Positions 7,286-20,503 of a stretch of 64,000 nt of DNA are shown here, in pieces. Position 1 is the stretch's first letter. The number at the start of each line of letters is the position of its first letter. The notes below the pieces were generated by a model, which worked only from the letters and a program-made list of their open reading frames with translations, did not search any database and was not told the DNA's origin. Both the position numbers and the translations under genes were made by a program. The DNA is taken from assembly GCF_056746865.1 (NCBI RefSeq), contig NZ_CM163382.1; one strand, given 5' to 3'.

Positions 7286-8822
7286 TCAGGCGGGCAGAGT
7301 AACCCGCCACGGGAGCAGAGCACCCACCCGGTTCACAGGCCAGTCGGCGATGACATCAAGTACATGATGCAGATAGCGTTCCGGATCCACGCCGTTTAAT
7401 TTGCACGTCCCGATAAGACTGTACAGTGACGCACCGCGCTCACCACCATGATCCGAGCCGAAGAACAGCCAGTTTTTTCTCCCCAGACTGACCAGTCGTA
7501 GGGCGTTTTCGGCAATGTTATTATCCACCTCCACCCAGCCATCTTCTGCATAGCGGGTCAGCGCCGGCCACTGGTTCAGCGCATACCCGAACGCCTTCGC
7601 CAGTTCTGAGTGCCTTGAGAGGGTTTTCTGTTTCTCCCGCAGCCACCCCTCCAGTGACGCCAGCAGCGGCAGCACTTTTTGGTGCCGGACTGCCTGCCGT
7701 TCCTCTGCTCTTTTACCTCTGAGCTCCGACTCGATGGCATACAGCTCGCCGATCCGTTTCAGCGCCTCCTCCGTCAGGGCTGACGGGGTACGGACGTGAA
7801 CATCGTGGATTTTTCGGCGGGCATGGGCCCAGCACGCGGCTTCCTTTATATGGCCGTCGCGGTAGAGCTCGTTGAACCCGGCGTAGGCATCAGCCTGCAG
7901 TACGCCACTGAAGCCTGCAAGATGGGTCTGAGGGTGGATACCTTTTCTGTCCGGGCTGTAAGCGAACCACACTGCGGGGGCCAGCGCTGATCCGGCGTTG
8001 CGGTCGTCTCGAACGTACGTCCATAAGCGCCCGGTCTTCGTCTTCTTATTGCCCGGCAACAGCACCGGGACAGGCATATCGTCAGCATGGAGTTTGCCGT
8101 CGGTCAGGACATAGTGCTGAAGGGCTTCATCCAGCGGTGCCAGCAGACGACAACACGCATCCACCCAGCCCGACAGTACAGAACGACTCAACACTACACC
8201 CTGGCGGGCATAGATCTCCGACTGGCGATACAGCGGTATGTGCTCTGCATACTTTGAGGTCAGCACTCGGGCCAGCAGCCCCGGTCCGGCGATCCCCCGT
8301 TCGATGGGGCGCGAAGGAGCCGGGGCCTGAACGATGCGATCGCACCGACGGCAGGCATGCTTTTCACGGACTGTCCGGATAACCCGGAAGGCGCTGCGCA
8401 TCAGCTCCAGCTGTTCGGCGGCATCCTCACCCAGGTAACTCAGCGAACCACCGCACTCCGGGCAACACGGCTCAGTCGGCAGCAGCCGCTTCTCATCCCG
8501 TGGGAGTGACTCAGGGAACGGTTTGCGGGTGCGGGTCTGACGCAGCGGGCGCTGCACTGCCGGGTCATCCACCCGGCCGGTCAGCGTATCGCTTTCCTGC
8601 TGCAGCAGGTTCAGGTCAGCTTCCATTTGCGCGATACGGCGGGATACCTTTTCGGAACGACTGCCGAAGTTCATCCGGCGCAGCTTATCCAGTTGCGCCT
8701 GCAGATGGTCTATTTCGCGTTCCCGGTTGCTCAGCTTTTCCTGCAGGGCGTGGATCAACGCTTCCTGGTTCGGCCAGGCGCTGTTTCAGCAGAAGGATGT
8801 CGTCAGAAGAGGTGTCGTTCAT
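7286..8822 (-). pseudogene. tnpC: IS66 transposase TnpC with a frameshift about 17 codons from the start
   Basis: ORF 7286..8758 is the IS66 TnpC body. The N-terminus MNDTSSDDILLLKQRLAE is encoded from 8822 in another frame, with one extra C near 8770 (gaaccaggaagcg). Confidence 0.65.
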
Positions 8823-8871
8823 AAGCCTGTATTTTACCAGGCTTATTCTGCGACAACCAGGATAAAGAGCG

Positions 8872-9219
8872 CTACAACATGGTCAGGGATGTCAGTAACC
8901 GCTTTGGCTGTCGCCAGTCGATACCTTCCATCAGCATCGCCAGTTGCGCCGGCGTCAGGAACACTTTGCCATCGCGGGCTGAGGGCCAGGCGAAGCGACC
9001 ACGTTCTAGTCGCTTTGTCAGCAGGCACAGACCATCGCCGGTGGACCAGAGCAGTTTTACCTGACTGCCGCTGCGTCCCCGGAAGATGAAGACGTGGCCG
9101 GACATCGGGTCATCTTTCAGCGCGGTCTGCACCTTTGCGGCGAGGCCATTGAAGCCGTTGCGCATATCGGTGATACCGGCAACCAGCCAGATTTTTGTGC
9201 CTGCGGGAAGATTTATCAT
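8872..9219 (-). CDS. tnpB: IS66 family accessory protein TnpB
   Basis: 115-aa ORF MINLPAGTKIWLVAGITDMRNGFNGLAAKVQ..., typical IS66 Orf2. Confidence 0.85.
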   Translation of the reverse strand: MINLPAGTKIWLVAGITDMRNGFNGLAAKVQTALKDDPMSGHVFIFRGRSGSQVKLLWSTGDGLCLLTKRLERGRFAWPSARDGKVFLTPAQLAMLMEGIDWRQPKRLLTSLTML

Positions 9220-9599
9220 ACAGGCCCCCGCATCAGTTCGCGCAGGACAGTGCTCATGAGTTCAGCAGAGGGATGAGTCAGTGTTATTTCTCCTCCCCGA
9301 CATTTTATGTGGCAGGTAGCGGGAGGAGAGCAGGATGGTAGTTCGAAGGTTGGGAGAGAAGAGCCCGCCTGAAGCTGCACGGGTATCAGGGCAGGAAGCG
9401 ACGATGAGTTTTTTCGGGGCCGACAGACCCGCCCTTCACGCTGCCAGAGCCTTATCCATTTAAAGAGCAGGTTATCATTGACGTCATGTTTCCGGGCCAG
9501 TGCGGCAATACTGCCTTCTTCTTCAAGAGCCAGCCTGACCAGTTCCATTTTGAATTCAGGGGAATAGTGTTTCCGGGGAAGTCTTTCTTTAGCGCGCAT
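9216..9599 (-). CDS. tnpA: IS66 family accessory protein TnpA
   Basis: 127-aa ORF with HTH-like N-terminus, overlapping the tnpB start by 4 nt. Confidence 0.75.
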   Translation of the reverse strand: MRAKERLPRKHYSPEFKMELVRLALEEEGSIAALARKHDVNDNLLFKWIRLWQREGRVCRPRKNSSSLPALIPVQLQAGSSLPTFELPSCSPPATCHIKCRGGEITLTHPSAELMSTVLRELMRGPV

Positions 9600-9682
9600 G
9601 AGGTGTCCACCTGCAAAATAAGTGGGTGCTTAAGTTACAGGATCCTGGATTCGGGACCAGACGGTACTCAGACGACGCTTAC

Positions 9683-9690
9683 AGAGAATG
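9683..9690. repeat. 8-bp target-site duplication AGAGAATG (right copy) of IS66-family element
   Basis: See left copy at 7237-7244. Confidence 0.8.
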
Positions 9691-9960
9691 TCCGGAATGA
9701 CGAGGTTATCTTTGCGGAGATTAAGGCAATGGTATACGGGCCGACGTTCCATGCCGCGTTACTACATTCAGCCCGGACGTAAAATGCGCCCGTCAAAAAG
9801 AACGGTTCGCTTCGAAACTCAGCCAGGATACCACCTCTCCGCCACACCCGGGAAGAAGTTGATATGGTGGTTGCCGGACAACAGCGCTCCTGGATTGACT
9901 GCTGCATCACTCAACCACGCTGAATATCAAAGGAGAGCGTTACCGGTTAAAAGAGAAACG
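9683..9960 (+). pseudogene. IS21 istA remnant, 3' piece (frameshifted, truncated)
   Basis: Encodes NVRNDEVIFAEIKAM and, in a second frame, RYYIQPGRKMRPSKRTVRFETQPGY, matching IS21 IstA residues ~85-150. No intact ORF. Confidence 0.6.
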
Positions 9961-11466
9961 TAAAGCTGTGGTGATGACCCAAAACGCAACGCCTGTCAGT
10001 GAGGATGAAATGGTGAAAAGCGGACAGCATCAGTAACGGAAGTATCTTAGCGGGTACGAAAATGGCAGGATCGTGACATTGACAGAATATCTCCTGATCA
10101 TCCTGAATGACTGCAGTTGCTGTAGAAAAGTAAGCTGTCTCCACCCACGGCACCACTTAACAGGCATTCCGTAACTTCCCCCAGACTTACTATGACGCAT
10201 TATCGGTGCACTGAAAACGGGAGAGTGCGCTTAAAACCGCAGACCGCATGCGGGTGTTACTGCATGACAGTCTGGCCGTATTGTGAGATGTCGGCAGGAA
10301 CCGATGTCCGCGCAGGGGGGAACTTCCTGCAGTACCTGACGCTTCAAATGGTATTAACCGTAGGGTGTTGTTGGTTCCGGATCGCGGAAATGGGAGCACA
10401 GGTCTGCTACGGGGTGTACCTCTGACAGTATATCCGGCTCGCTCATCTGACAGCCTCTCTCCCGGAAAAGACCAAAAATGAGATCGTCTCCTCAACAGCA
10501 GAGAAGAGGTCTTGACAGACAGGCTATATTGCATACGATTTATGAAGAAAAAGACAGCAAATATGGAGGTTATAGCGGAGAATACCCTACGAAATTCCTA
10601 TGAAAAACGATTGAAAAAAATATCAAATTCGATTCGTTTTTATATGCTTTTTGGGAGCGTGGCGATGACGAACTGTTGCATGTGCAGAGGAGAATGCACC
10701 CGGAAGCACCAGAATCATCCAGAAAGGCAGAACGATTACGCATCAAACCAGGAGACAGCAATATCAAGGTAATATACTGATTTAAAATGAATTTACAGCA
10801 ATACGTGAAAACATTTTTTACTTAAAGGAGACAGATGCGCTGAAGAGAGTGCAAGTATTTTTATATAAAAATGAGAAGTTTACGGGATGTATATCCGGCA
10901 CACTATGACCGGAGAATATCAGTCAAGCTTAAAAAGACAATAAATACAGTGAGTTAAATACACAGAGAAAACGTAGTATCAGAGGGTACATCTTACAACA
11001 GAGACTGAATTTCCGGTTTTTCATAACCGGCGCATTCCGGAAAGTGCAGGCGGCCCGGAGGTTTTCTGACGCCACTACCTGGTAGATTGTTCTGTACATC
11101 ATGTACGGAGGTTTTTGTTTGCTTTTTTAAAATCTGCAAATGTGAGAAAAGCAGGTGAGGTGTATTGTGGGAAAGGAACTGGATGATATCTGCACCAGCT
11201 GTCCGTATATCGATGCTGTAAAACGGCACAAACAACAGCTCGGTGCCATAGAGGAATATACACAGTGGTTAAAAAAAGAACCACGGGCATCTTATTTTTT
11301 TCTGTTCCAGCTGTATACCCGCATTCACAATACATTTTTCTCCCAAAAGCAACAACTCCCGTTCACTCCCGGTGGCACTCACTGCCCGGAACCTGATGTC
11401 ACCCTTCGGGACTTAACGCTTTCCCCTGGCTACCACAGTGATTATGCCCCTCAACCCATTCCGGAG

Positions 11467-12318
11467 ATGGACAGTTCTGCTGTTGTTCCCCCAACTAATG
11501 AAAACACCTCGCCTCCGGAAGATACTCCCGACAACACTCCGGCCGGAGGCAATACCGGACAAGCGGAAAAGACCAGAAACGCAGGACTCACACCCATTCC
11601 TGAAAAACGTTCAGGAATGCCCCCGGAACATCTGCGGTTTGCCACGGGGTTTCCATCGCAACCGAAGATTGCCGGTCCCAGAGAAAAGCCGATGCGCACC
11701 GTGCATCCGGATAAAATCTACCGTGAAATTATATGGTTCTGCTCCAGTTACCTGCTGAAATCCGGACCAGAGGCTACGAGGACGATTATCAACTCAGTAT
11801 TCTCTGAATGGGCCAGCATAAACAATGATTACCCCTCCCCCTTTTCGTGGGTGGACAGCAGGGACAGTGAACAGTGTGACTGGTTATGGAACGCCATGCA
11901 GGTCCGGTGTGTGGGAACCCCGCTGAATCCCCTTACCCCGGAGCAGAAATACTGGTTTGCCTGCGCCACGTTTGATAACTGGGAGGGCTGGAATGAGCAA
12001 CAGGTACAGTTTTTACTGGAAAGTAATCCCAGACGGAACAGAGCGAAGTTTACGCAGGTCTCCTTCCAGGCCCCCAGGATTCAGCATAAAGCGATTCTTC
12101 TTGATGAGCTGAAAAGTGCCCGGGAGCAACAAAAAAGGCGTGATGAACGTGCTGATGGTTCCGTCCCTCTGAAACTGTCCGGAAAAATCCACAAACAGCT
12201 TGAAAGTATTGCCCGAAGTCGTGGTGTCCTCCCAAAAAAACTGCTGAATGAAATGATTGAGCAGGCGTACCATGATTTGGTGGCAACCAGGCAGAACAGC
12301 CAAATCGATTCCAGATAA
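11467..12318 (+). CDS. hypothetical protein (Pro/Thr-rich N-terminal region; C-terminal region with ribbon-helix-helix-like segment)
   Basis: ORF 11155..12318 with no ATG before 11467. GGAG precedes ATG 11467. No family recognised. Confidence 0.3.
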   Translation: MDSSAVVPPTNENTSPPEDTPDNTPAGGNTGQAEKTRNAGLTPIPEKRSGMPPEHLRFATGFPSQPKIAGPREKPMRTVHPDKIYREIIWFCSSYLLKSGPEATRTIINSVFSEWASINNDYPSPFSWVDSRDSEQCDWLWNAMQVRCVGTPLNPLTPEQKYWFACATFDNWEGWNEQQVQFLLESNPRRNRAKFTQVSFQAPRIQHKAILLDELKSAREQQKRRDERADGSVPLKLSGKIHKQLESIARSRGVLPKKLLNEMIEQAYHDLVATRQNSQIDSR

Positions 12319-12401: not shown

Positions 12402-12637
12402 ATGAATCCGTCTGATGCCATTGAGGCAATTGAAAAACCGCTCTCCTCCCTGCCTTACTCACTTTCCCGTCACATCCTGGAACATCTGCGCAAACTCACC
12501 AGTCACGAACCCGTGCCTGGCATTATGGGTAAAAGCGGGGCCGGTAAATCCTCACTCTGTAATGCGCTGTTTCAGGGGGAGGTCACCCCGGTCAGTGATG
12601 TTCACGCCGGCCCCCGGGAAGTGCAGCGCTTCCGTCT
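12402..12637 (+). pseudogene. YeeP/YfjP-like small GTPase gene, N-terminal part (interrupted by IS21-family element)
   Basis: P-loop GKSGAGKSS, then ...REVQRFRL at the insertion junction. Confidence 0.7.
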
Positions 12638-12839
12638 TGCAAAATGGCATCTGAATCGATCGCAGTTTGGCATTCGAATCGATCATGATTTGGCATCCAT
12701 CTCCGATCACAGTTTGGCATCACAATCGATCACGATTTGGCATGCTTCCGATCATTGATTGGCATCCTGCCAGTCACTCCGGGAATTAACTCTTTTCACC
12801 ACAGTCTCCATTGCCGTGTTTAAACCAGTGGAGACGTCA

Positions 12840-14405
12840 ATGTCCAGAAAGAGAAAATCCAGGAGCACTATGGAAACCTGTTTTAAGATTCTTCAGCTCA
12901 AGTTCGACAAGAAGCTGACTAACCGTTGTATCGGACTGACGTTACACATCAGCGCCTCAACCGTTTTTGAGGTTCTTGCCCGCTTCAAAGCCTCTTCTCT
13001 GTCATGGCCATTACCTGCTGATATATCCCATGACACGCTGGAGAAACTCATTTTTCCGCCCAAAGACACCTTTGCATCAGAGCTTGTAATGCCTGACATG
13101 TTGTACCTCGATACGGAAATGAGAAAACCAGGTGTGACGCGGCAACTGTTGTGGATGGAATACAAGGCACAGGCGGGTAACAAAGCGATGGGATACTCGC
13201 ACTTCTGCCGTTGCTACCGGGAGTGGAAAAAAACGCGACGTCTCTCCATGCGCCAGGAGCATCGTGCCGGCGAAAAGCTTTTTATCGACTTCTGTGGTCC
13301 TACGGTTCCTGTTATTAATCCGGACACCGGTGAGATACGCCGCGTGGCAATCTTCGTGGCCGTAATGGGGGCGTCCAACTATACCTACGTTGAAGCGTGC
13401 GAAGGTCAGGACATGATGTCATGGTTAAATGCCCACAGCCGTTGCCTGACCTTCCTGGGCGGCGTACCGAAGCTGCTCATCCCCGATAACCTCAGAAGCG
13501 CAGTGAAAAAGGCCGATCGATATGAGCCTGTCATCAACGACAGTTATCAGGCACTGGCTGAGCACTATGGCACGGTTATCATCCCGGCCCGACCACGCAA
13601 ACCTAAAGATAAACCAAAAGCAGAAAACGGCGTCCTCATCGTCGAACGATGGCTTCTTGCCCGCATCCGTAATGAAACCTTCCACACGCTCAGGGCGCTG
13701 AATGCGCGCCTTAGGGAGTTACTGACAGACATGAATAACCGGCCAATGAAGGGGTACGGCAATCAAACCCGTGCAGAACGCTTCCGCATACTGGATGCGC
13801 CAGCACTCTCTCCGCTGCCTCTGGCACCTTATGAATACACGGAATACAAAGCTGTGAAGGTTGGCCCTGACTACCACGTTGAATATGCCCGTCACTGGTA
13901 CTCCGTTCCACACGAACTGGTCGGTCAGCGTCTGTCACTGAAGGCGGGGCAGTCGGTGGTACAGCTCTGGCACAAGGGGCAGTGTGTGGCGCAACATCCG
14001 CGCAGCACACATGAATATAAACACACAACCAATCCGCTTCACATGCCAGAGCGCCACCGGCAGCACGGGACATGGACACCGGAACGCCTGATCGAGCAGG
14101 GAAAACGTACGGGCCCGTCCACAGGCCGGGTGGTTGAATCCATGCTGAAGGCAAAACCCCATCCGGAACTGGCTTATCGTGCAGTTCTGGGGCTGCTGGC
14201 ACTTCAGAAAAAATACGGCCCGGAACGGCTGGAAAAGGCCTGTTACGTTGCCCTGCACTATAACGCCCCTGACAGACGCTTTATCGACAATCTGCTGCGT
14301 CACCATCGGGAGAACCTGGAGCTTCCATTATCCCGCCAGGGCGAACAACATCCGGCATATGCTTCAGAGCATGAAAACCTGCGTGGTCCGGGCTACTACC
14401 ACTGA
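12840..14405 (+). CDS. istA: IS21-family transposase IstA
   Basis: Long ORF with GGAG ribosome-binding site before ATG 12840; lies between IS21-type ends, directly upstream of an IstB-like gene. Confidence 0.7.
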   Translation: MSRKRKSRSTMETCFKILQLKFDKKLTNRCIGLTLHISASTVFEVLARFKASSLSWPLPADISHDTLEKLIFPPKDTFASELVMPDMLYLDTEMRKPGVTRQLLWMEYKAQAGNKAMGYSHFCRCYREWKKTRRLSMRQEHRAGEKLFIDFCGPTVPVINPDTGEIRRVAIFVAVMGASNYTYVEACEGQDMMSWLNAHSRCLTFLGGVPKLLIPDNLRSAVKKADRYEPVINDSYQALAEHYGTVIIPARPRKPKDKPKAENGVLIVERWLLARIRNETFHTLRALNARLRELLTDMNNRPMKGYGNQTRAERFRILDAPALSPLPLAPYEYTEYKAVKVGPDYHVEYARHWYSVPHELVGQRLSLKAGQSVVQLWHKGQCVAQHPRSTHEYKHTTNPLHMPERHRQHGTWTPERLIEQGKRTGPSTGRVVESMLKAKPHPELAYRAVLGLLALQKKYGPERLEKACYVALHYNAPDRRFIDNLLRHHRENLELPLSRQGEQHPAYASEHENLRGPGYYH

Positions 14406-14421
14406 CAGAAGGAACAACAGT

Positions 14422-15177
14422 ATGAGTGATAACCTGTTAAACAAACTGACCCAACTGAAACTCCCGGCGATGGCCGGGAGCCTGATACGGCAGCGGGAAA
14501 CGCCTCAGACCTACGACGAACTGTCGTTCGAGGAAAGGCTGACGCTGCTGGTTGATGACGAGCTTCTGAGCAGGGAAAACAGCCGTGTGGCACGGTTGAG
14601 AAAAAATGCCGGCCTGAAATACCAGGCAACACCGGAAGGGCTGCGCTATCCGGCCTCAAGAGGTCTGCGGGCTGAACAGATGAGAGAACTGCTGAACGGC
14701 CACTACATAACCCACAGGAAAAACCTGCTGATAACCGGTCCGACAGGATGTGGCAAGAGCTGGATAGCCAATGCGCTGGGCGAACAGGCATGTCGACAGA
14801 AACACAGCGTCCGGTACTGTAGAACCGGGCGATTACTGGAACAACTGGCTCAGGGACGTGTTGATGGCAGCTGGCTGAAATATCTGAAACAGTTGCAAAA
14901 AATACAGGTTCTAATCCTGGACGATCTGGGGCTGGAACAGTTAAGTAACGCCCAGTGTAATGACCTTCTGGAGCTCATAGAGGATCGTTACGGACAAAGC
15001 AGCACGATAGTGGTAAGCCAGTTCCCGGTAGATAAATGGCATGGTCTGATGGAGAACCCAACAACAGCAGATGCCATCCTGGACAGACTGGTACATAACT
15101 CACACCGGGTGGTCCTTCAGGGAGAGTCACTGAGGAAAAATCCCCCGGTAGTGGAAAGCAGCGAAAAAACGCGTTAA
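14422..15177 (+). CDS. istB: IS21-family helper ATPase IstB
   Basis: Walker A LITGPTGCGKS and Walker B VLILDDLG motifs; ATG 14422 with AGGAA upstream. Confidence 0.85.
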   Translation: MSDNLLNKLTQLKLPAMAGSLIRQRETPQTYDELSFEERLTLLVDDELLSRENSRVARLRKNAGLKYQATPEGLRYPASRGLRAEQMRELLNGHYITHRKNLLITGPTGCGKSWIANALGEQACRQKHSVRYCRTGRLLEQLAQGRVDGSWLKYLKQLQKIQVLILDDLGLEQLSNAQCNDLLELIEDRYGQSSTIVVSQFPVDKWHGLMENPTTADAILDRLVHNSHRVVLQGESLRKNPPVVESSEKTR

Positions 15178-15276: not shown

Positions 15277-15920
15277 TCCGTCTGAATGGCCATGGTCACA
15301 GCATGGTTATCACTGACCTGCCCGGGGTGGGCGAGAGCCGGGACAGGGATGCAGAGTATGAAGCCCTGTACCGTGACATTCTGCTCGAACTGGACCTGGT
15401 ACTGTGGCTGATTAAAGCCGATGACCGTGCCCTGTCTGTGGATGAGTATTTCTGGCGACACATCCTGCACCGGGGACATCAGCGGGTACTGTTTGTGGTG
15501 ATGCAGGCCGATAAAACGGAGCCCTGCCATGAATGGGATATGGCCGGTATTCAGCCTTCTCCCGCACAGGCACAGAACATTCGCGAAAAAACGGAGGCGG
15601 TATTCCGTCTGTTCCGGCCCGTACATCGGGTTGTTGCCGTATCGGCCCGCACCGGCTGGGAACTGGATACGCTGGTCAGTGCGCTCATGACAGCACTTCC
15701 CGACCATGCCGCCAGTCCCCTGATGACCCGCCTGCAGGACGAGCTGCGCACGGAGTCTGTCCGGTCTCAGGCCCGTGAACAGTTTACCGGTGCGGTGGAC
15801 CGGATATTTGACACGGCGGAGAGCGTCTGCATTGCCTCTGTTGCACGCACGGTTCTGCGCGCCGTCCGTGACTCGGTGGTCTCTGTTGCCCGCGCGGTAT
15901 GGAACTGGATTTTCTTCTGA
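15277..15920 (+). pseudogene. YeeP/YfjP-like small GTPase gene, C-terminal part
   Basis: Continues the split GTPase: G3 motif DLPGVGES, then LVLWLIKADDR and VLFVVMQADK. Confidence 0.7.
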
Positions 15921-16137: not shown

Positions 16138-18534
16138 ATGCACGAAAAGAACATCGCCCTGCTTTGTGATGAAGCCGACCGACTTTTGCAACTGAACATT
16201 AATCTGCTCCGGCAAATGGTTGAGGAGCCAGATGTGTTATCTGACAGTAAGAACGAAAACAGACTGCTTTTTGATAAACAGAAAGCACTGAAAAGAATTG
16301 AGGAGCTGGAGGGCGAACAAATCAAAACCGCCCGCAGGGAGATGGTGCTGGCTGTTGTCGGCACGATGAAAGCAGGCAAATCAACCACCATCAACGCCAT
16401 TGTGGGGCAGGAAATTCTGCCTAACCGTAACCGCCCCATGACCTCTGTACCGACGCTCATCCGCCACGTTCCCGGAAAAACTGAGCCGGTTCTCCATCTG
16501 GAACATATTCAGCCTGTCCGCAATTTATTAATCACACTGCAGGAAAAACTCGCCACCCCGGCAGGACAGCAGGTCGCACAGACCCTGCAGCAAACCGGGG
16601 ATACCCGCGAACTGCTGGATATTCTGACGGATGATGGCTGGCTCAAAAATGAATACCACGGGGAGGAGGAAATCTTTACCGGACTGGCATCGTTAAACGA
16701 TCTGGTTCGTCTTGCTGCGGCAATGGGGACTGAATTTCCTTTTGATGAATACGCAGAAGTGCAGAAACTGCCGGTGATCGACGTGGAATTCAGCCATCTG
16801 GTGGGGATGGATGCATGCCAGGGAACACTCACACTGCTGGATACCCCCGGCCCTAATGAGGCCGGACAACCGCAGATGGAAGTGATGATGCGGGATCAAC
16901 TGCAGAAAGCCTCTGCGGTTCTGGCTGTGATGGATTACACCCAGATGAACTCAAAAGCGGATGAAGACGTCCGTAAAGAGCTTAATGCCATTGCTGACGT
17001 ATCAGCCGGCCGCCTGTTTGTACTGGTCAATAAATTTGATGAGAAAGACCGCAATGGCGATGGGGCAGATGCCGTACGCCAGAAAGTTCCGGCAATGCTG
17101 AACAGCGATGTGCTGCCCGCCTCCCGCGTTTATCCCGGATCCTCACGCCAGGCATACCTGGCTAACCGTGCGCTTCATGAGTTACGGAAAAACGGAACCC
17201 TTCCTGTTGATGAAGCCTGGGTCGATGATTTTATCAGAGGTGCCTTCGGTTGCATGAAAAAAGAATACGTCTGTAAAGACAGTGAACTGGCAACTGAAGG
17301 GGCGACAGACCTGTGGGAAGGCTCACTTATCGATCAACTGATAACGGAAGTCATACAGAGCTCACATTCCAGAGCTGCGGCACTGGCGGTTGACTCTGCC
17401 GCCGCAAAACTGATGCAGAATGCAGAAAATATCAGTGAATACCTGTTGTTACGCCATCAGGGGCTACAGCAAAGCATTCAGTCACTGCAGTCGCATATCA
17501 CCAGCCTGCTTGCGGATATCCGGGAAATCGCGGACTGTCAGGAGCAGATGACCACTGATGTCAGAATGGCCATGGAGGAGATCGATACTAAAACCCGGGA
17601 ATTACTGACGGGGGTCTGCACCTCACTGGAAGAGGAGCTGAATGACTATTTCAGAAGCGGTAAACGCAAAGAACAGCAAATGCTGGAGGAAGAAGACGCA
17701 GAACAACGAAGGTCTCAGTCCGGATTATGGGGGAAAATTTCTCAATGGTCCGGTATCAACAACCAGGGCCGGGAGGATTACAGGAAACGAGATTTTGCCC
17801 CGGACAGCCCCGAAATAAAATTCAGTGATCGCAGGGAAGCCCTTGAACTGATGACGCAAATCGAATCGACCGTGACCAGCCTGCACCGTGAGGCTGAAGC
17901 ACAGTTCCGGCCTGAGCTGGAGAAAATCGTCAGCGGGATTGAAACAGGTTTTCGTGGCACGGCCCTGTACGCCACAGAAAACATTGCCGGTCGCATCAAT
18001 GCCCGCCTGGAGGATGAGGGCTTTACCGTAAAAATCAGTTTTCCGGCAGTCAGCCAGTTACAGACCCGGCTCGCGGTAAAAATAAATCTGAGTGCGCTTA
18101 TGGAGGAAAGAACGGAGACCGTCACCCGTCGCCGTCGGCAGAGTGGCGTATGGGGAACCGTTTGTCGATGGTTTGGCACCAGTGACCTGGGCTGGGAAAA
18201 CTATGACGAGGATGTGAGTCGCAGCGTGATCAATATCAACAAGGTCAGAGAGGAAGTTATGTCACTGACCCGGGCATATTTCGGGGAGCTGCAGGCATCC
18301 ATTGAGCAGGATATTAACCAGCCCGTCCGCCAGGAAATCGATGCCTTTTTCTGCGCATTCAGGGAGAAAGTTGAACAACTGCGTAACACGCTGATTCAGA
18401 GCTCTGAAGATCATAAACGCGATCAGCAGGCGCAGGAACGGCTTACCGGGCGACTTCAGGCATTAAATGAAAGGGTTCCTGAGCTCATTACTGACAGTAA
18501 GGCGCTGAGGGAAGAGCTGGAGACAATGCTGTGA
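16138..18534 (+). CDS. dynamin-like GTPase, CrfC/YjdA-like (798 aa)
   Basis: G1 P-loop GTMKAGKST, G2 Thr in MTSVPT, G3 DTPG, G4 NKFD, in dynamin order, followed by a long helical region. N-terminal block MVLAVVGTMKAGKSTTINAIVGQEILPNRNRPMT closely matches recalled E. coli CrfC. AGGAAGG ribosome-binding site. Confidence 0.85.
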   Translation: MHEKNIALLCDEADRLLQLNINLLRQMVEEPDVLSDSKNENRLLFDKQKALKRIEELEGEQIKTARREMVLAVVGTMKAGKSTTINAIVGQEILPNRNRPMTSVPTLIRHVPGKTEPVLHLEHIQPVRNLLITLQEKLATPAGQQVAQTLQQTGDTRELLDILTDDGWLKNEYHGEEEIFTGLASLNDLVRLAAAMGTEFPFDEYAEVQKLPVIDVEFSHLVGMDACQGTLTLLDTPGPNEAGQPQMEVMMRDQLQKASAVLAVMDYTQMNSKADEDVRKELNAIADVSAGRLFVLVNKFDEKDRNGDGADAVRQKVPAMLNSDVLPASRVYPGSSRQAYLANRALHELRKNGTLPVDEAWVDDFIRGAFGCMKKEYVCKDSELATEGATDLWEGSLIDQLITEVIQSSHSRAAALAVDSAAAKLMQNAENISEYLLLRHQGLQQSIQSLQSHITSLLADIREIADCQEQMTTDVRMAMEEIDTKTRELLTGVCTSLEEELNDYFRSGKRKEQQMLEEEDAEQRRSQSGLWGKISQWSGINNQGREDYRKRDFAPDSPEIKFSDRREALELMTQIESTVTSLHREAEAQFRPELEKIVSGIETGFRGTALYATENIAGRINARLEDEGFTVKISFPAVSQLQTRLAVKINLSALMEERTETVTRRRRQSGVWGTVCRWFGTSDLGWENYDEDVSRSVININKVREEVMSLTRAYFGELQASIEQDINQPVRQEIDAFFCAFREKVEQLRNTLIQSSEDHKRDQQAQERLTGRLQALNERVPELITDSKALREELETML

Positions 18535-19436
18535 CTTCACCATTTATTCAACAAATTGCTGATAACCGGGTATGTCAGGTACTCACCTGTCTTCCTGAAA
18601 AATTTGTGGTTGATTTCGCAAACGGAATCGATGTTGCACAGGAGCATATCCGCACGGCCGGAGAGCGCACGTTCTTCCGGCGTTTAAAAGAGGGGCTGAC
18701 CGGCGAAGGCGCTGCACGGCAGAATGCCATCAATGCGTCGCTTGCACAGGGCGTTGAGGCGTCCCTGCGCTGGCTGACGGAGATGACAACGTCACTTGCC
18801 ACCACAAACTACGCGATTACCCGGGTAAACGACAGGGTCAGTTCACTGGTCAGTGATACAGCCAGGCTGGCGCATTATTCCGCAGATACGCGGGAGCAGT
18901 TACTCACCCTGGCCGATCAGGTTCACCATAAACTGAATCATCTTGAAGAAAAACTCCACCGTGTTGACCAGGTTCAGCGGGCGCAGTTACATCTTGAGCA
19001 GATATTCTCATGGTGGAGCGCCGGGCGATATGCGTCATTTTCCCCTGCCGGACGTTGTTATGTGGCACTTGAAGAGCTTCGCTGGGGCGCGTTTGGTGAT
19101 GTGATACGTCAGAGCGAAACAGGCCAGGTTAACCAGCTACTGGATATTCTCAGACATAAAGCATTAACGCAGATGGCACAGGAGAGTGGCGGTAGTGCAA
19201 CCGTGCGTCTGAACACTCTGGACTGGCTTGGTGGTCAGGGCCGGGAGCAGGCAGATAACGAGTGGCATGACGCGATTAACTGGCTGGGAGACTGGTGCAG
19301 TGAAGAGCAGCATCCGGTGATCTGGTCAACCACGCAGGCTGCAGAACACTTACCGGTTCGCATGCCTCGCCTCTGCTCTGCAGAACGCCTCTCTGAAAGT
19401 ATGGTCGATGAAATATTTCAGAAGGGGGCTGCATGA
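18531..19436 (+). CDS. YjcZ-like partner protein of the dynamin-like GTPase (301 aa)
   Basis: GTG start overlaps the upstream stop (ctGTGA); GGAG 10 bp upstream. Size and position mirror the crfC-yjcZ pair; family assignment not verified. Confidence 0.55.
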   Translation: MTSPFIQQIADNRVCQVLTCLPEKFVVDFANGIDVAQEHIRTAGERTFFRRLKEGLTGEGAARQNAINASLAQGVEASLRWLTEMTTSLATTNYAITRVNDRVSSLVSDTARLAHYSADTREQLLTLADQVHHKLNHLEEKLHRVDQVQRAQLHLEQIFSWWSAGRYASFSPAGRCYVALEELRWGAFGDVIRQSETGQVNQLLDILRHKALTQMAQESGGSATVRLNTLDWLGGQGREQADNEWHDAINWLGDWCSEEQHPVIWSTTQAAEHLPVRMPRLCSAERLSESMVDEIFQKGAA

Positions 19437-20503
19437 GTACAGAAATGAAAACGGGGCTGGTGCTGTCCGGTGGCGGGGCGGTGGGCGCTTATCAGGCGGG
19501 AGTGGTTAAGGCACTGGCAGAGTGTGGTACACAGATCAGCATGGTTTCAGGGGCCAGCATTGGCGCATTCAATGGTGCCATTATCGCGGCCTCTCCCGAT
19601 CTGTCAGAAGCTGCCGTACGCCTGGAGGCGCTCTGGGATCATCTGGGGAATAATCAGGTGCTGTCGGTAAACAGATTGGTTTACTTTTCATTGCTGAAAA
19701 AATTGTTCCAGGCAATGAACCTCTGCCAGATCCCCGGACGTGCAGGAGCACTGCTTACGACGCTTCTTCGCCATATATCGACAATCAACGGGTTTGACAA
19801 TCTGATGGCTCAGCCGTTGTTGTCAGATGAGCCCCTGACAGCGCTGATGGATCATTATCTTGATACTGATGCTCTGGCAGACGGGCTACCGCTGTATGTG
19901 TCGCTGTACCCCACAGAAGGGGGCATGCAGGATATTATTGACTGCATTCGTGCTGAACTGGGTGTCGGAACCACGAAAAACGCCGTTTTTCAGCATATCC
20001 AGAGCCTGCCCCGCGGACAGCAGAAAGAGGCTCTGCTTGCGTCAGCCGCGCTGCCCCTGCTGTTCCGTCCCCGTGAGGTTCAGGGGACAATGTTCGGTGA
20101 TGGTGGTATGGGAGGATGGCGAAATATGCAGGGAAATACCCCTGTGACGCCTCTGGTCGATGCCGGATGCAATATGGTGATTGTGACGCATCTGAGTGAG
20201 GGTTCTTTATGGGATCGCCAGGCTTTTCCGGACACCACAATCCTTGAGATCCGTCCCCGGAAAAGGCTGAAATATGCAGGTGATGGTGGCAACAGCGGCG
20301 GTCTGCTCAGTTTTACATCGGCACATACCGACGCCTGGCGTCAGCAGGGCTATGAAGACACGATGCTGGCGATGGAGCATATCCGGAAACCGCTGGCAGC
20401 ACGTCAGGCACTGACCCGGTCAGAGGCGGTATTGCAGAAAAGCCTGGATATAACGGAAGAGGCAGATTTGGCACTGAGAAACGCGATGGCCCGGATTAAA
20501 TAA
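19433..20503 (+). CDS. patatin-like phospholipase (356 aa)
   Basis: Oxyanion motif LSGGGAVGAYQAG, nucleophile elbow G-A-S-I-G (Ser42, nt 19556-19558), catalytic Asp in FGDGG (Asp223, nt 20099-20101). ATG overlaps the upstream stop (gcATGA). Confidence 0.85.
   Translation: MSTEMKTGLVLSGGGAVGAYQAGVVKALAECGTQISMVSGASIGAFNGAIIAASPDLSEAAVRLEALWDHLGNNQVLSVNRLVYFSLLKKLFQAMNLCQIPGRAGALLTTLLRHISTINGFDNLMAQPLLSDEPLTALMDHYLDTDALADGLPLYVSLYPTEGGMQDIIDCIRAELGVGTTKNAVFQHIQSLPRGQQKEALLASAALPLLFRPREVQGTMFGDGGMGGWRNMQGNTPVTPLVDAGCNMVIVTHLSEGSLWDRQAFPDTTILEIRPRKRLKYAGDGGNSGGLLSFTSAHTDAWRQQGYEDTMLAMEHIRKPLAARQALTRSEAVLQKSLDITEEADLALRNAMARIK

Follow-up and report, generated by a model that had tools for sequence, protein, structure and literature searches.

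An unnamed gene of enterobacterial genomic islands is predicted to encode a ribbon-helix-helix DNA-binding protein with a Trp-rich domain

Does the long open frame that precedes a split YeeP-type GTPase gene in a bacterial genomic island encode a protein, and what might such a protein do for the island that carries it? The frame lies on the forward strand at positions 11155..12318 of a 64,000-nucleotide stretch of contig NZ_CM163382.1 (assembly GCF_056746865.1), hereafter the window. A reading made from the sequence alone had described it as an unclassified frame coding for a Pro/Thr/Asn-rich region, a Trp-rich domain and a C-terminal segment resembling a ribbon-helix-helix (RHH) DNA-binding motif. 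Our analysis of the frame, its relatives and its surroundings indicates that it is very probably a real gene, and its product is likely to be an RHH DNA-binding protein. That this is a functional gene for a 383-residue DNA-binding protein of the island backbone, likely the island's own regulator, is a proposal for which we consider the balance to be even.

Open frame and start codon

The frame consists of 387 stop-free codons beginning at GTG 11155, and its earliest in-frame ATG is indeed at 11467, as the sequence-only reading had stated. At the local base composition the probability of 387 codons without a stop is ~1.5e-8, corresponding to ~0.002 such frames expected per window over six frames, so the frame is not expected by chance. 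In strain 7/2 the identical sequence is annotated by RefSeq as a coding sequence from the GTG equivalent to window position 11167, and this GTG is the likely start codon of a 383-residue protein. A GAGG precedes it in the window, and among diverged E. coli alleles two begin with ATG, in one case (L006) at the codon homologous to GTG 11167; the missing ATG is therefore no obstacle to the gene call.

11167..12318, + strand: coding sequence of the unnamed-family protein, 383 amino acids plus stop, with the GTG start given by PGAP/RefSeq (RefSeq WP_000514100.1, "hypothetical protein")
11158..11161, + strand: Shine-Dalgarno GAGG, 5 nt before GTG 11167, read from the sequence, in a block kept among E. 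coli alleles

Distribution and conservation

An exhaustive HMMER scan of 1.84 billion representative proteins returned only 60 matches, among which the full-length relatives were 288-388 amino acids long, shared 20-38% identity and were all named 'hypothetical'. Cluster look-ups and a source name placed relatives in Salmonella, Klebsiella, Citrobacter, Yersinia, Kosakonia, Pectobacterium and Vibrio, and a word-indexed homologue search with the family profile added almost no further members. Single-sequence searches of the window protein against Pfam, NCBIfam, PHROGs, PADLOC and the PDB gave no match, no family member was recognised by Pfam, NCBIfam, PHROGs or PADLOC, and literature searches on yeeP, the island module and accession WP_000514100.1 turned up no mention of the protein. 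A lack of homologues was the outcome that the sequence-only reading had named as counting against a gene; homologues were found, in support of a real one. Sequence comparison thus places the frame in a small unnamed protein family that is real and conserved across genera, and these distant relatives are a stronger argument for the gene than the ratio of nonsynonymous to synonymous substitution rates (dN/dS) within E. coli.

Among complete E. coli genomes, the gene was found in 1,963 of 5,426 (at least 90% identity, at least 80% of length), in one to three copies that were almost always chromosomal. Sampled entries covering most of the gene were all annotated as a hypothetical protein and none as a pseudogene, and the carriers included Nissle 1917 and O104:H4. 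No match to the protein was present in 50,697 phage records, and a phage origin of the gene was rejected on these grounds; plasmids with the family numbered only three. A K-12 counterpart (yoeG or yoeH) was likewise rejected, since tblastn and blastn found no trace of the gene in the K-12 regions preceding yeeP, yfjP and ykfA.

The frame is preserved in four E. coli alleles that share 72-79% protein identity, and their overall dN/dS is 0.37-0.75. In the deeper of the E. coli comparisons the ratio over codons 1-60 was 0.14-0.34; in a central linker (residues 64-175) it was 0.53-0.79. Core residues 176-300, the Trp-rich domain, had an unusually low synonymous rate (dS 0.05-0.13) and a noisy ratio (dN/dS 0.3-1.35). 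In the same five of six allele pairs, the dS of 0.05-0.13 in this domain (window 11692-12066) compared with 0.33-0.67 in the linker. Such near-identity at synonymous sites, in alleles with an overall difference of 20-28%, suggests that island copies have recombined or undergone gene conversion, or that the DNA itself is under constraint, and the low core dS looks like mosaicism between island copies.

Domain architecture and predicted fold

Conservation was called from an alignment of 28 family members, in which W215, W228 and W239 are invariant and W34, R40, F226, D270 and W272 are nearly invariant. The regions of the protein, with the predicted local distance difference test (pLDDT) where it characterises a region, are as follows.

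11167..11355, + strand: N-terminal region, residues 1-63, short and helical, with the motif W34...R40 (WLKxxPRAxxFxxF), whose W34 and R40 are nearly invariant in the 28 members
11356..11691, + strand: Pro/Thr-rich linker, residues 64-175, unalignable and of variable length across the family, pLDDT 21-27
11692..12066, + strand: Trp-rich helical bundle, residues 176-300, matching no known family
12067..12165, + strand: long basic helix, residues 301-333, with a KAWxQKxxR motif (K308, A318, Q321 and R325 nearly invariant), leading into the RHH
12166..12315, + strand: predicted RHH, residues 334-383, with strand PLKLS, helix GKIHKQLESIARSR, turn and helix PKKLLNEMIEQAY

An AlphaFold2 model of residues 176-383 built from the 28-sequence alignment reached a pLDDT of 89.4 and a predicted template modelling score (pTM) of 0.71, compared to a pLDDT of 37 from five near-identical sequences only. 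Its helices span, in model numbering, residues 6-24, 26-46, 59-71, 83-96, 102-111 and, as a long helix, 128-156, followed by a short extended segment and helices 164-177 and 181-207. The model predicts with high confidence that the C-terminal half folds as a Trp-rich bundle, a long basic helix and an RHH, the last having the ~45-residue strand-helix-tight turn-helix arrangement of that fold. In a comparison of the family profile with PDB sequences, the RHH of the chromosome-organising protein MatP ranked best (E 0.0019), followed by CopG, HP0222 and 56B at E 0.6-1.1, and most of the weaker matches were annotated RHH proteins. Good local Foldseek matches were confined to small RHH proteins, including Mnt and HicB-type proteins, and a viral fold library gave small local RHH matches only. 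Below the curated Pfam cut-offs, four members matched RepB-RCR_reg and single members matched RHH_1, RHH_7 and HicB.

These results agree in part with what had been read from the sequence alone. The confident model and the PDB matches to MatP and mostly annotated RHH proteins support the C-terminal RHH, of which the originally quoted segment, LKLSGKIHKQLESIARSRGVLPKKLLNEMIEQAY, makes up residues 335-368, and 8 of the 9 Trp of the whole protein fall in residues 176-300, in keeping with the Trp-rich domain. The low-complexity description stands in part: residues 64-175 are 20% Pro and 11% Thr, and Asn, which had also been named, is not enriched, falling outside the eight commonest residues. This linker is probably disordered.

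Residues 1-63 could be aligned with residues 186-248, the first three helices of the Trp-rich domain, such that the motif f-W-l-K-x3-RA-x-yF matches the 'PFSWxD-x3-QCxWxW' helix and the two helices preceding it. The alignment is weak (hhalign probability 31%, P 5e-4) and hints at an internal duplication, by which the protein would hold two copies of one helical module. One subfamily (Pectobacterium P0078 and P0067; locus L099, 6001-7089) stops directly after the basic helix and has no RHH; tblastn found no RHH encoded downstream of these Pectobacterium members, and the subfamily retains both the GTPase neighbour and upstream TTACTA repeats of the kind described below. The family combines domains in a new way around a known DNA-binding fold, and it has escaped annotation though it is present in a third of E. 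coli genomes.

Position in the island backbone

The gene was inside an island of the integrase/AlpA/HUH/RadC/CbtA type in 11 of 11 lineages examined, and in all ten Enterobacterales lineages it was located between an AlpA/HUH arm and a GTPase-DUF932 array, heading the rightward array. In intact relatives the leftward arm consists of an HUH-like YagK/YfjJ ('inovirus Gp2') gene, zinc-ribbon genes, AlpA and variable cargo, including type I restriction-modification systems, a retron-like reverse transcriptase, SNF2 helicases and copper resistance. A gap of 400-1600 bp separates this arm from the family gene. The rightward arm comprises the family gene, the YeeP-type GTPase, DUF932, a WYL/DeoR regulator, Ag43 or other cargo, DUF905, antirestriction, RadC, DUF987 and CbeA/CbtA. 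The GTPase, which is of the TRAFAC/MMR_HSR1 type, lies directly downstream of the family gene in nine of the ten Enterobacterales lineages and, in the tenth, 3.9 kb off behind an insertion. The HUH-like gene is divergent from the family gene in four lineages and 5-6 kb away in E. coli. In Vibrio, the homologue is flanked by a P4-type integrase and YagK/YfjJ; RadC and AlpA are close by, and there is no GTPase neighbour. By these arrangements, the gene belongs to the conserved backbone shared by tRNA-inserted enterobacterial islands of the integrase/AlpA/HUH-endonuclease/RadC/CbtA type. A 2025 preprint describes this island class as carrying an integrase, an excisionase, a rolling-circle HUH endonuclease and a distal 'moron' module with RadC/ArdB and CbtA/CbeA (PMC12458937), and does not mention the family protein.

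The position upstream of the GTPase had been described in the sequence-only reading as one usually occupied by island-specific regulators. This did not hold for K-12, where the GTPase paralogues yeeP, yfjP and ykfA are preceded by yoeA/IS2, rnlB and perR, respectively; what did hold is that, in the non-K-12 islands of the ten Enterobacterales lineages, the upstream gene is always of the same family.

The island in the window occupies the CP4-44 position and is followed by yeeX/tmaR, yeeA, the his operon and the O-antigen region. It is damaged by two insertion sequence (IS) elements, both confirmed by Pfam: an IS66 element upstream (7286-9599) and an IS21-type element (12759-15177) that splits the GTPase gene.

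Phased repeats upstream of the gene

When the upstream regions from E. coli, Salmonella, Klebsiella and Citrobacter were aligned, ACCCTACG-N6-YTAYG was the sole invariant block, the remainder having diverged. The general element is made up of two to four CTAYG or TTACTA cores with a spacing of exactly 11 bp. A phased pair was present upstream of the gene, on the + strand, in nine of ten lineages (each P 0.000-0.018 compared to dinucleotide shuffles of its own region), and in six lineages the repeats lie 121-175 bp before the start codon. Positions below are given relative to the start codon.

10584..10602, + strand: phased direct repeat ACCCTACG-aaattc-CTATG, with two CTAYG cores at 11-bp spacing; candidate operator
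E. coli main alleles: -571 to -599 bp (window 10584-10602)
Salmonella: -150 bp
Klebsiella: -175 bp
Citrobacter: -131 bp
E. coli/Citrobacter 355-amino-acid type: -130 bp, TTACTACG twice
Kosakonia: -143 bp, three cores
Yersinia: -121 bp, ATTACTA three times
Pectobacterium: -41 bp
Vibrio: -19 bp, a perfect palindrome, ACTACGTAGT, and not a phased pair

The 11-bp-phased YTAYG/TTACTA pair upstream of the gene is the only one on either strand of the window. A scan of both strands of all loci (~560 kb) revealed three background pairs; in most loci the upstream pair stood alone, and it was always on the strand of the gene. Such consistency of position and strand would be hard to explain without selection, as far as can be judged from these loci. 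The K-12 islands that lack the gene have no phased pair, though CP4-57 has alpA and yfjJ, which argues against AlpA and YfjJ as readers of the repeats. Phased short repeats are what cooperative RHH proteins such as ParR, omega and MetJ recognise.

Additional elements surround the candidate operator in the window.

10359..10366, - strand: inverted second copy of ACCCTACG, lying 225 bp farther upstream, the two forming an inverted repeat
10512..10539, + strand: sigma-70-like match TTGACA-16-TACGAT (10/12), 45 bp upstream of the repeat; a consensus match only
11090..11120, + strand: terminator-like hairpin TCTGTACAT-C-ATGTACGGA and a U-run after it, 57 nt before the start codon

The inverted copy is present in the window and strain 7/2, not in the other alleles, and its relevance is uncertain. 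The TTGACA-16-TACGAT block is conserved in allele L005. The hairpin is retained in three of four E. coli alleles (best z = -2.9) and may terminate transcription from upstream or serve as the attenuator of a long leader. In the main E. coli type, the distance from the phased repeats to the gene seems to have grown by ~440 bp relative to the other genera. Rfam gave nothing in the upstream gap, its sole match being IsrC/IS102 downstream of the GTPase.

The 1.5-kb stretch before the gene (window 9600-11166 and L002 4400-6000), bounded on its other side by a hypothetical gene of 200 amino acids or by the IS, contains no convincing open reading frame (ORF), and PGAP marks hypothetical-protein and AAA ATPase fragments there. 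A short ORF at 10482-10772 (+) overlaps the ACCCTACG repeat (…NMEVIAENTLRNSYEKRLKK…), and its first ~35 residues are conserved among E. coli alleles. A small conserved gene behind the ACCCTACG motif was rejected, since the ORF has anywhere between 44 and 97 codons depending on the E. coli allele, and its protein sequence is not conserved in other genera; it is probably not a gene, and PGAP makes no call for it in strain 7/2.

Comparison with MatP and other RHH proteins

MatP was the top PDB match of the family profile, with E 0.037 for the full-length alignment; the alignment of the C-terminal part gave the E of 0.0019 noted above with Photorhabdus MatP and E 0.073 with E. coli MatP. The Photorhabdus alignment covers MatP residues 9-129, which form the four-helix bundle plus RHH. 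MatP chains took Foldseek ranks 1, 3, 4 and 22 without reaching significance (E 1.3-9.8, template modelling (TM) score 0.25-0.35). A profile-profile comparison with hhalign was colinear over the entire DNA-binding region, with a probability of 25-28% and P 1.5e-4 to 6e-4. This comparison is limited by a MatP alignment of low diversity, in which the listed homologues are at least 97% identical to E. coli MatP, bar one partly duplicated sequence, and for which a genome scan kept the 80 closest Enterobacteriaceae sequences. For E. coli MatP, 14.5 bits of the score came from the basic helix and RHH versus 0.5 bits from helix 1. The basic helix of the family protein aligned with MatP helix 4, 'MKQTIRARRKRH'. 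None of the 28 members matched the MatP Pfam models PF06303 and PF17414 at E <= 1, whereas true MatP proteins carry both.

The likeness to MatP (macrodomain Ter protein; PDB 4D8J, 3VEA/3VEB, 7NYW) extends to the order of the parts: a Trp-containing first helix (GWKWxYL in MatP, QCxWxWxYM in the family), more helices, a basic helix and the RHH. MatP occurs in Enterobacterales and Vibrio, a range that the family shares. In contrast to MatP, the family protein has two extra bundle helices and a 175-residue N-terminal extension and lacks the C-terminal coiled coil; it ends ~15 residues past the RHH core, and the MatP alignment stops at MatP residue 129-142. The family gene is an accessory island gene in one to three copies whereas matP is a core gene, and the candidate sites found here are direct repeats 11 bp apart at one locus, unlike the ~23 palindromic matS sites of MatP. 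The palindromic matS consensus, GTGACRNYGTCAC, has no exact match in the window, and the match nearest to the gene, at 10073, has two mismatches. Matches to this consensus with up to two mismatches numbered 15 in the window versus 6.3 +/- 2.4 in shuffles, and 0 of 100 shuffles reached 15. The best of them, at 18783, has one mismatch, and none adjoins the gene except that at 10073. MatP thus appears to be the closest solved relative, and its plan of bundle, basic helix and RHH the best available analogy. Membership in the MatP family is not established, and homology outside the RHH is unproven.

Other RHH proteins of mobile elements share less with the family. TraM of F-like plasmids (PDB 3ON0) is also encoded on mobile elements, and in a structural study of TraM bound to sbmA it is said to read short pentamer motifs in helical phase near its own promoter or origin of transfer (oriT) and to autoregulate. 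In contrast to the family protein, with its 383 residues, C-terminal RHH and unrelated Trp-rich domain, TraM has 127 residues, an N-terminal RHH and a C-terminal domain for tetramerisation and TraD binding, and no conjugation genes lie near the family gene. ParR, ParG, omega, CopG and Arc/Mnt have the RHH fold in common with the family. RHH centromere-binding and autoregulatory proteins bind tandem, helically phased repeats upstream of their own operon, and ParR and ParG resemble the family protein in having an NTPase gene in that operon. These proteins are, however, 45-120 residues long, their NTPase partners are ParA or ParM rather than a TRAFAC GTPase, and centromeres usually contain more repeats than the two to four found here. 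RHH antitoxins (ParD/PrpA, MazE4, TacA, FitA, DinJ) are small, carry an N-terminal RHH and are encoded beside a recognised toxin gene, none of which applies to the family protein: it has 383 residues, a C-terminal RHH, a GTPase as neighbour and no PADLOC match.

Proposed role and alternatives

As the first gene of a conserved module, the family gene is an obvious candidate for the switch of that module or for a protein that marks island DNA, and a regulatory role is plausible. We propose, tentatively, that the protein binds the phased repeats and autoregulates, a possibility suggested by the sequence and placement of the repeats. In such a mechanism, the protein would dimerise via its RHH, and the paired beta-strands would enter the major groove of the phased repeats, where the two arms of the island meet. 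Extra contacts could come from the basic helix and the helical bundle, as in MatP, and occupancy of the repeats would control the gene's own promoter together with the rightward operon. The disordered Pro/Thr linker would tether the N-terminal region, which may serve as a protein-interaction module that binds a partner.

Several observations weigh against this proposal. Within E. coli, dN/dS falls below 1 by a moderate margin only. The repeat pattern was drawn up after inspection of the very loci in which it was tested. In the main E. coli type the repeats are ~575 bp upstream, with the terminator-like hairpin between them and the gene, and scans of the upstream region for sigma-70 promoters gave numbers of matches not above chance. 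The RHH-less Pectobacterium subfamily still has its upstream TTACTA repeats, which implies that another part of the protein, or another protein, reads them. Finally, the monomer model has no beta-strand at the position of the RHH (DSSP, model residues 158-163). The absence of this strand would be expected for an unpaired RHH monomer, the strand itself being predicted from the fold.

An unlikely alternative to the regulator is that the protein is a DNA-processing accessory, which binds the repeats at an origin of replication or transfer and helps the HUH endonuclease (YagK/YfjJ, inovirus Gp2-like) to nick the excised island and replicate or mobilise it. TraM, TraY and NikA are RHH proteins with this kind of role in relaxosomes. 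The divergent pairing with the HUH-like gene across 400-1100 bp in several lineages (Vibrio L009; L095, L097, L098) is consistent with this role, as is the occurrence of rolling-circle HUH endonucleases in the island class (PMC12458937), and antirestriction, RadC and DUF932 by our own reckoning resemble early-entry genes of transferred DNA. However, K-12 CP4-57 has yfjJ and lacks both the family gene and the repeats, the HUH-like gene is at its 5-6 kb distance in E. coli, and no hairpin or nick-site signature was identified beside the repeats. It is improbable that the protein is instead a true MatP paralogue that marks the island and, alone or with the GTPase, positions, segregates or shields the island or its circle. 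MatP's place as the top profile match, its Foldseek ranks, the colinear global hhalign alignment (P 1.5e-4) and the shared taxonomic range speak for such a positioning factor, as do the NTPase gene adjacent in the Enterobacterales loci (directly so in nine of ten) together with the upstream repeats, and the arrangement, with repeats first, then an adaptor gene and then the GTPase gene, recalls tubC-tubR-tubZ. Weighing against it, the similarity score comes mostly from the basic helix and RHH, the hhalign probability and the Foldseek TM scores are low, the Foldseek E values are high, no MatP Pfam model matches, the coiled coil is lacking, and each island has one or two repeat sites; in addition, a TRAFAC/MMR_HSR1 GTPase is not a known partition motor, and no GTPase gene stands beside the Vibrio homologue. 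An extension of this idea, which we regard as a long shot, is that the repeats, a MatP-like RHH protein and the YeeP-type TRAFAC GTPase might constitute an unrecognised positioning or partition cassette for the excised, rolling-circle-replicating island, or that a mobile MatP paralogue might let the island engage or evade MukBEF or the divisome; the analogy lies in a gene order like that of tubC-tubR-tubZ, with unrelated parts.

The constant upstream position relative to the GTPase gene in all ten Enterobacterales loci, with adjacency in nine, could also reflect an antitoxin-like partner or dedicated regulator of the GTPase, whose RHH would repress the promoter of the pair while another part neutralises the GTPase. 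We consider this very doubtful: the protein's size and C-terminal RHH are unlike those of type II antitoxins, PADLOC gave no match, K-12 retains YfjP and YkfA without the family gene, and the Vibrio homologue has no GTPase neighbour. The chances are also small that the gene is a decaying or functionless passenger, its conservation resulting from recent spread and gene conversion between island copies. The E. coli dN/dS, the low core dS with its noisy ratio, the degraded state of the island in the window, with its split GTPase gene and upstream IS66, and the many truncated or frameshifted variants in databases are compatible with a passenger, but the cross-genus homologues, at 20-35% identity, keep their length, domain order and invariant Trp residues, their alignment supports a high-confidence fold, and the frame is intact in about 2,000 genomes.

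The regulator proposal bears on a gene that about a third of complete E. coli genomes carry without a name or a Pfam family, and that opens a conserved module of a very common island class ferrying defence systems and Ag43-type adhesins. With a confident C-terminal fold, a defined RHH and a conserved candidate binding site, this hypothetical protein is now testable. Its significance would rise sharply if MatP homology or functional coupling to the GTPase were true; in the former case, a chromosome-organising protein so far seen only as a core gene would gain its first relative on a mobile element.

Neighbouring genes and insertion sequences

The GTPase fragments in the window lie at 12402-12758 and 15303-15920; in strain 7/2 the GTPase is intact, with 290 amino acids. 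The IS21-type element between the fragments encodes an IstA-like transposase (rve and Mu-transposase C domains) and IstB (PF01695, E 2e-60). The IS66-family element at 7286-9599 (-) is complete, with an HTH_Tnp_1 orf1, a TnpB_IS66 orf2 and a DDE_Tnp_IS66 transposase. Strain 7/2 carries IS100 (IS21-like) at roughly the place of IS66 in the window, and the area looks like a hotspot for insertions.

In the E. coli, Salmonella and Klebsiella loci, a gene of ~200 amino acids without a Pfam match lies beside AlpA (L001 7313-7915, L002 3797-4399, L007 6608-7201, L094 6585-7178), and in Citrobacter, Kosakonia and Pectobacterium a gene of 176-177 amino acids without a Pfam match is found in the same arm as AlpA. 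The ~200-amino-acid gene may be a second unnamed backbone gene.

Just past the GTPase, window positions 16138-20503 (+) encode a dynamin-family GTPase (798 amino acids), a YjcZ/RdcB-family protein (301 amino acids) and a patatin-like phospholipase (356 amino acids) in overlapping or abutting frames. This position is taken by Ag43 in other islands, and the region gave weak PADLOC matches (LeoBC, phospholipase effector). The three genes could form an uncharacterised membrane-remodelling or defence cassette.

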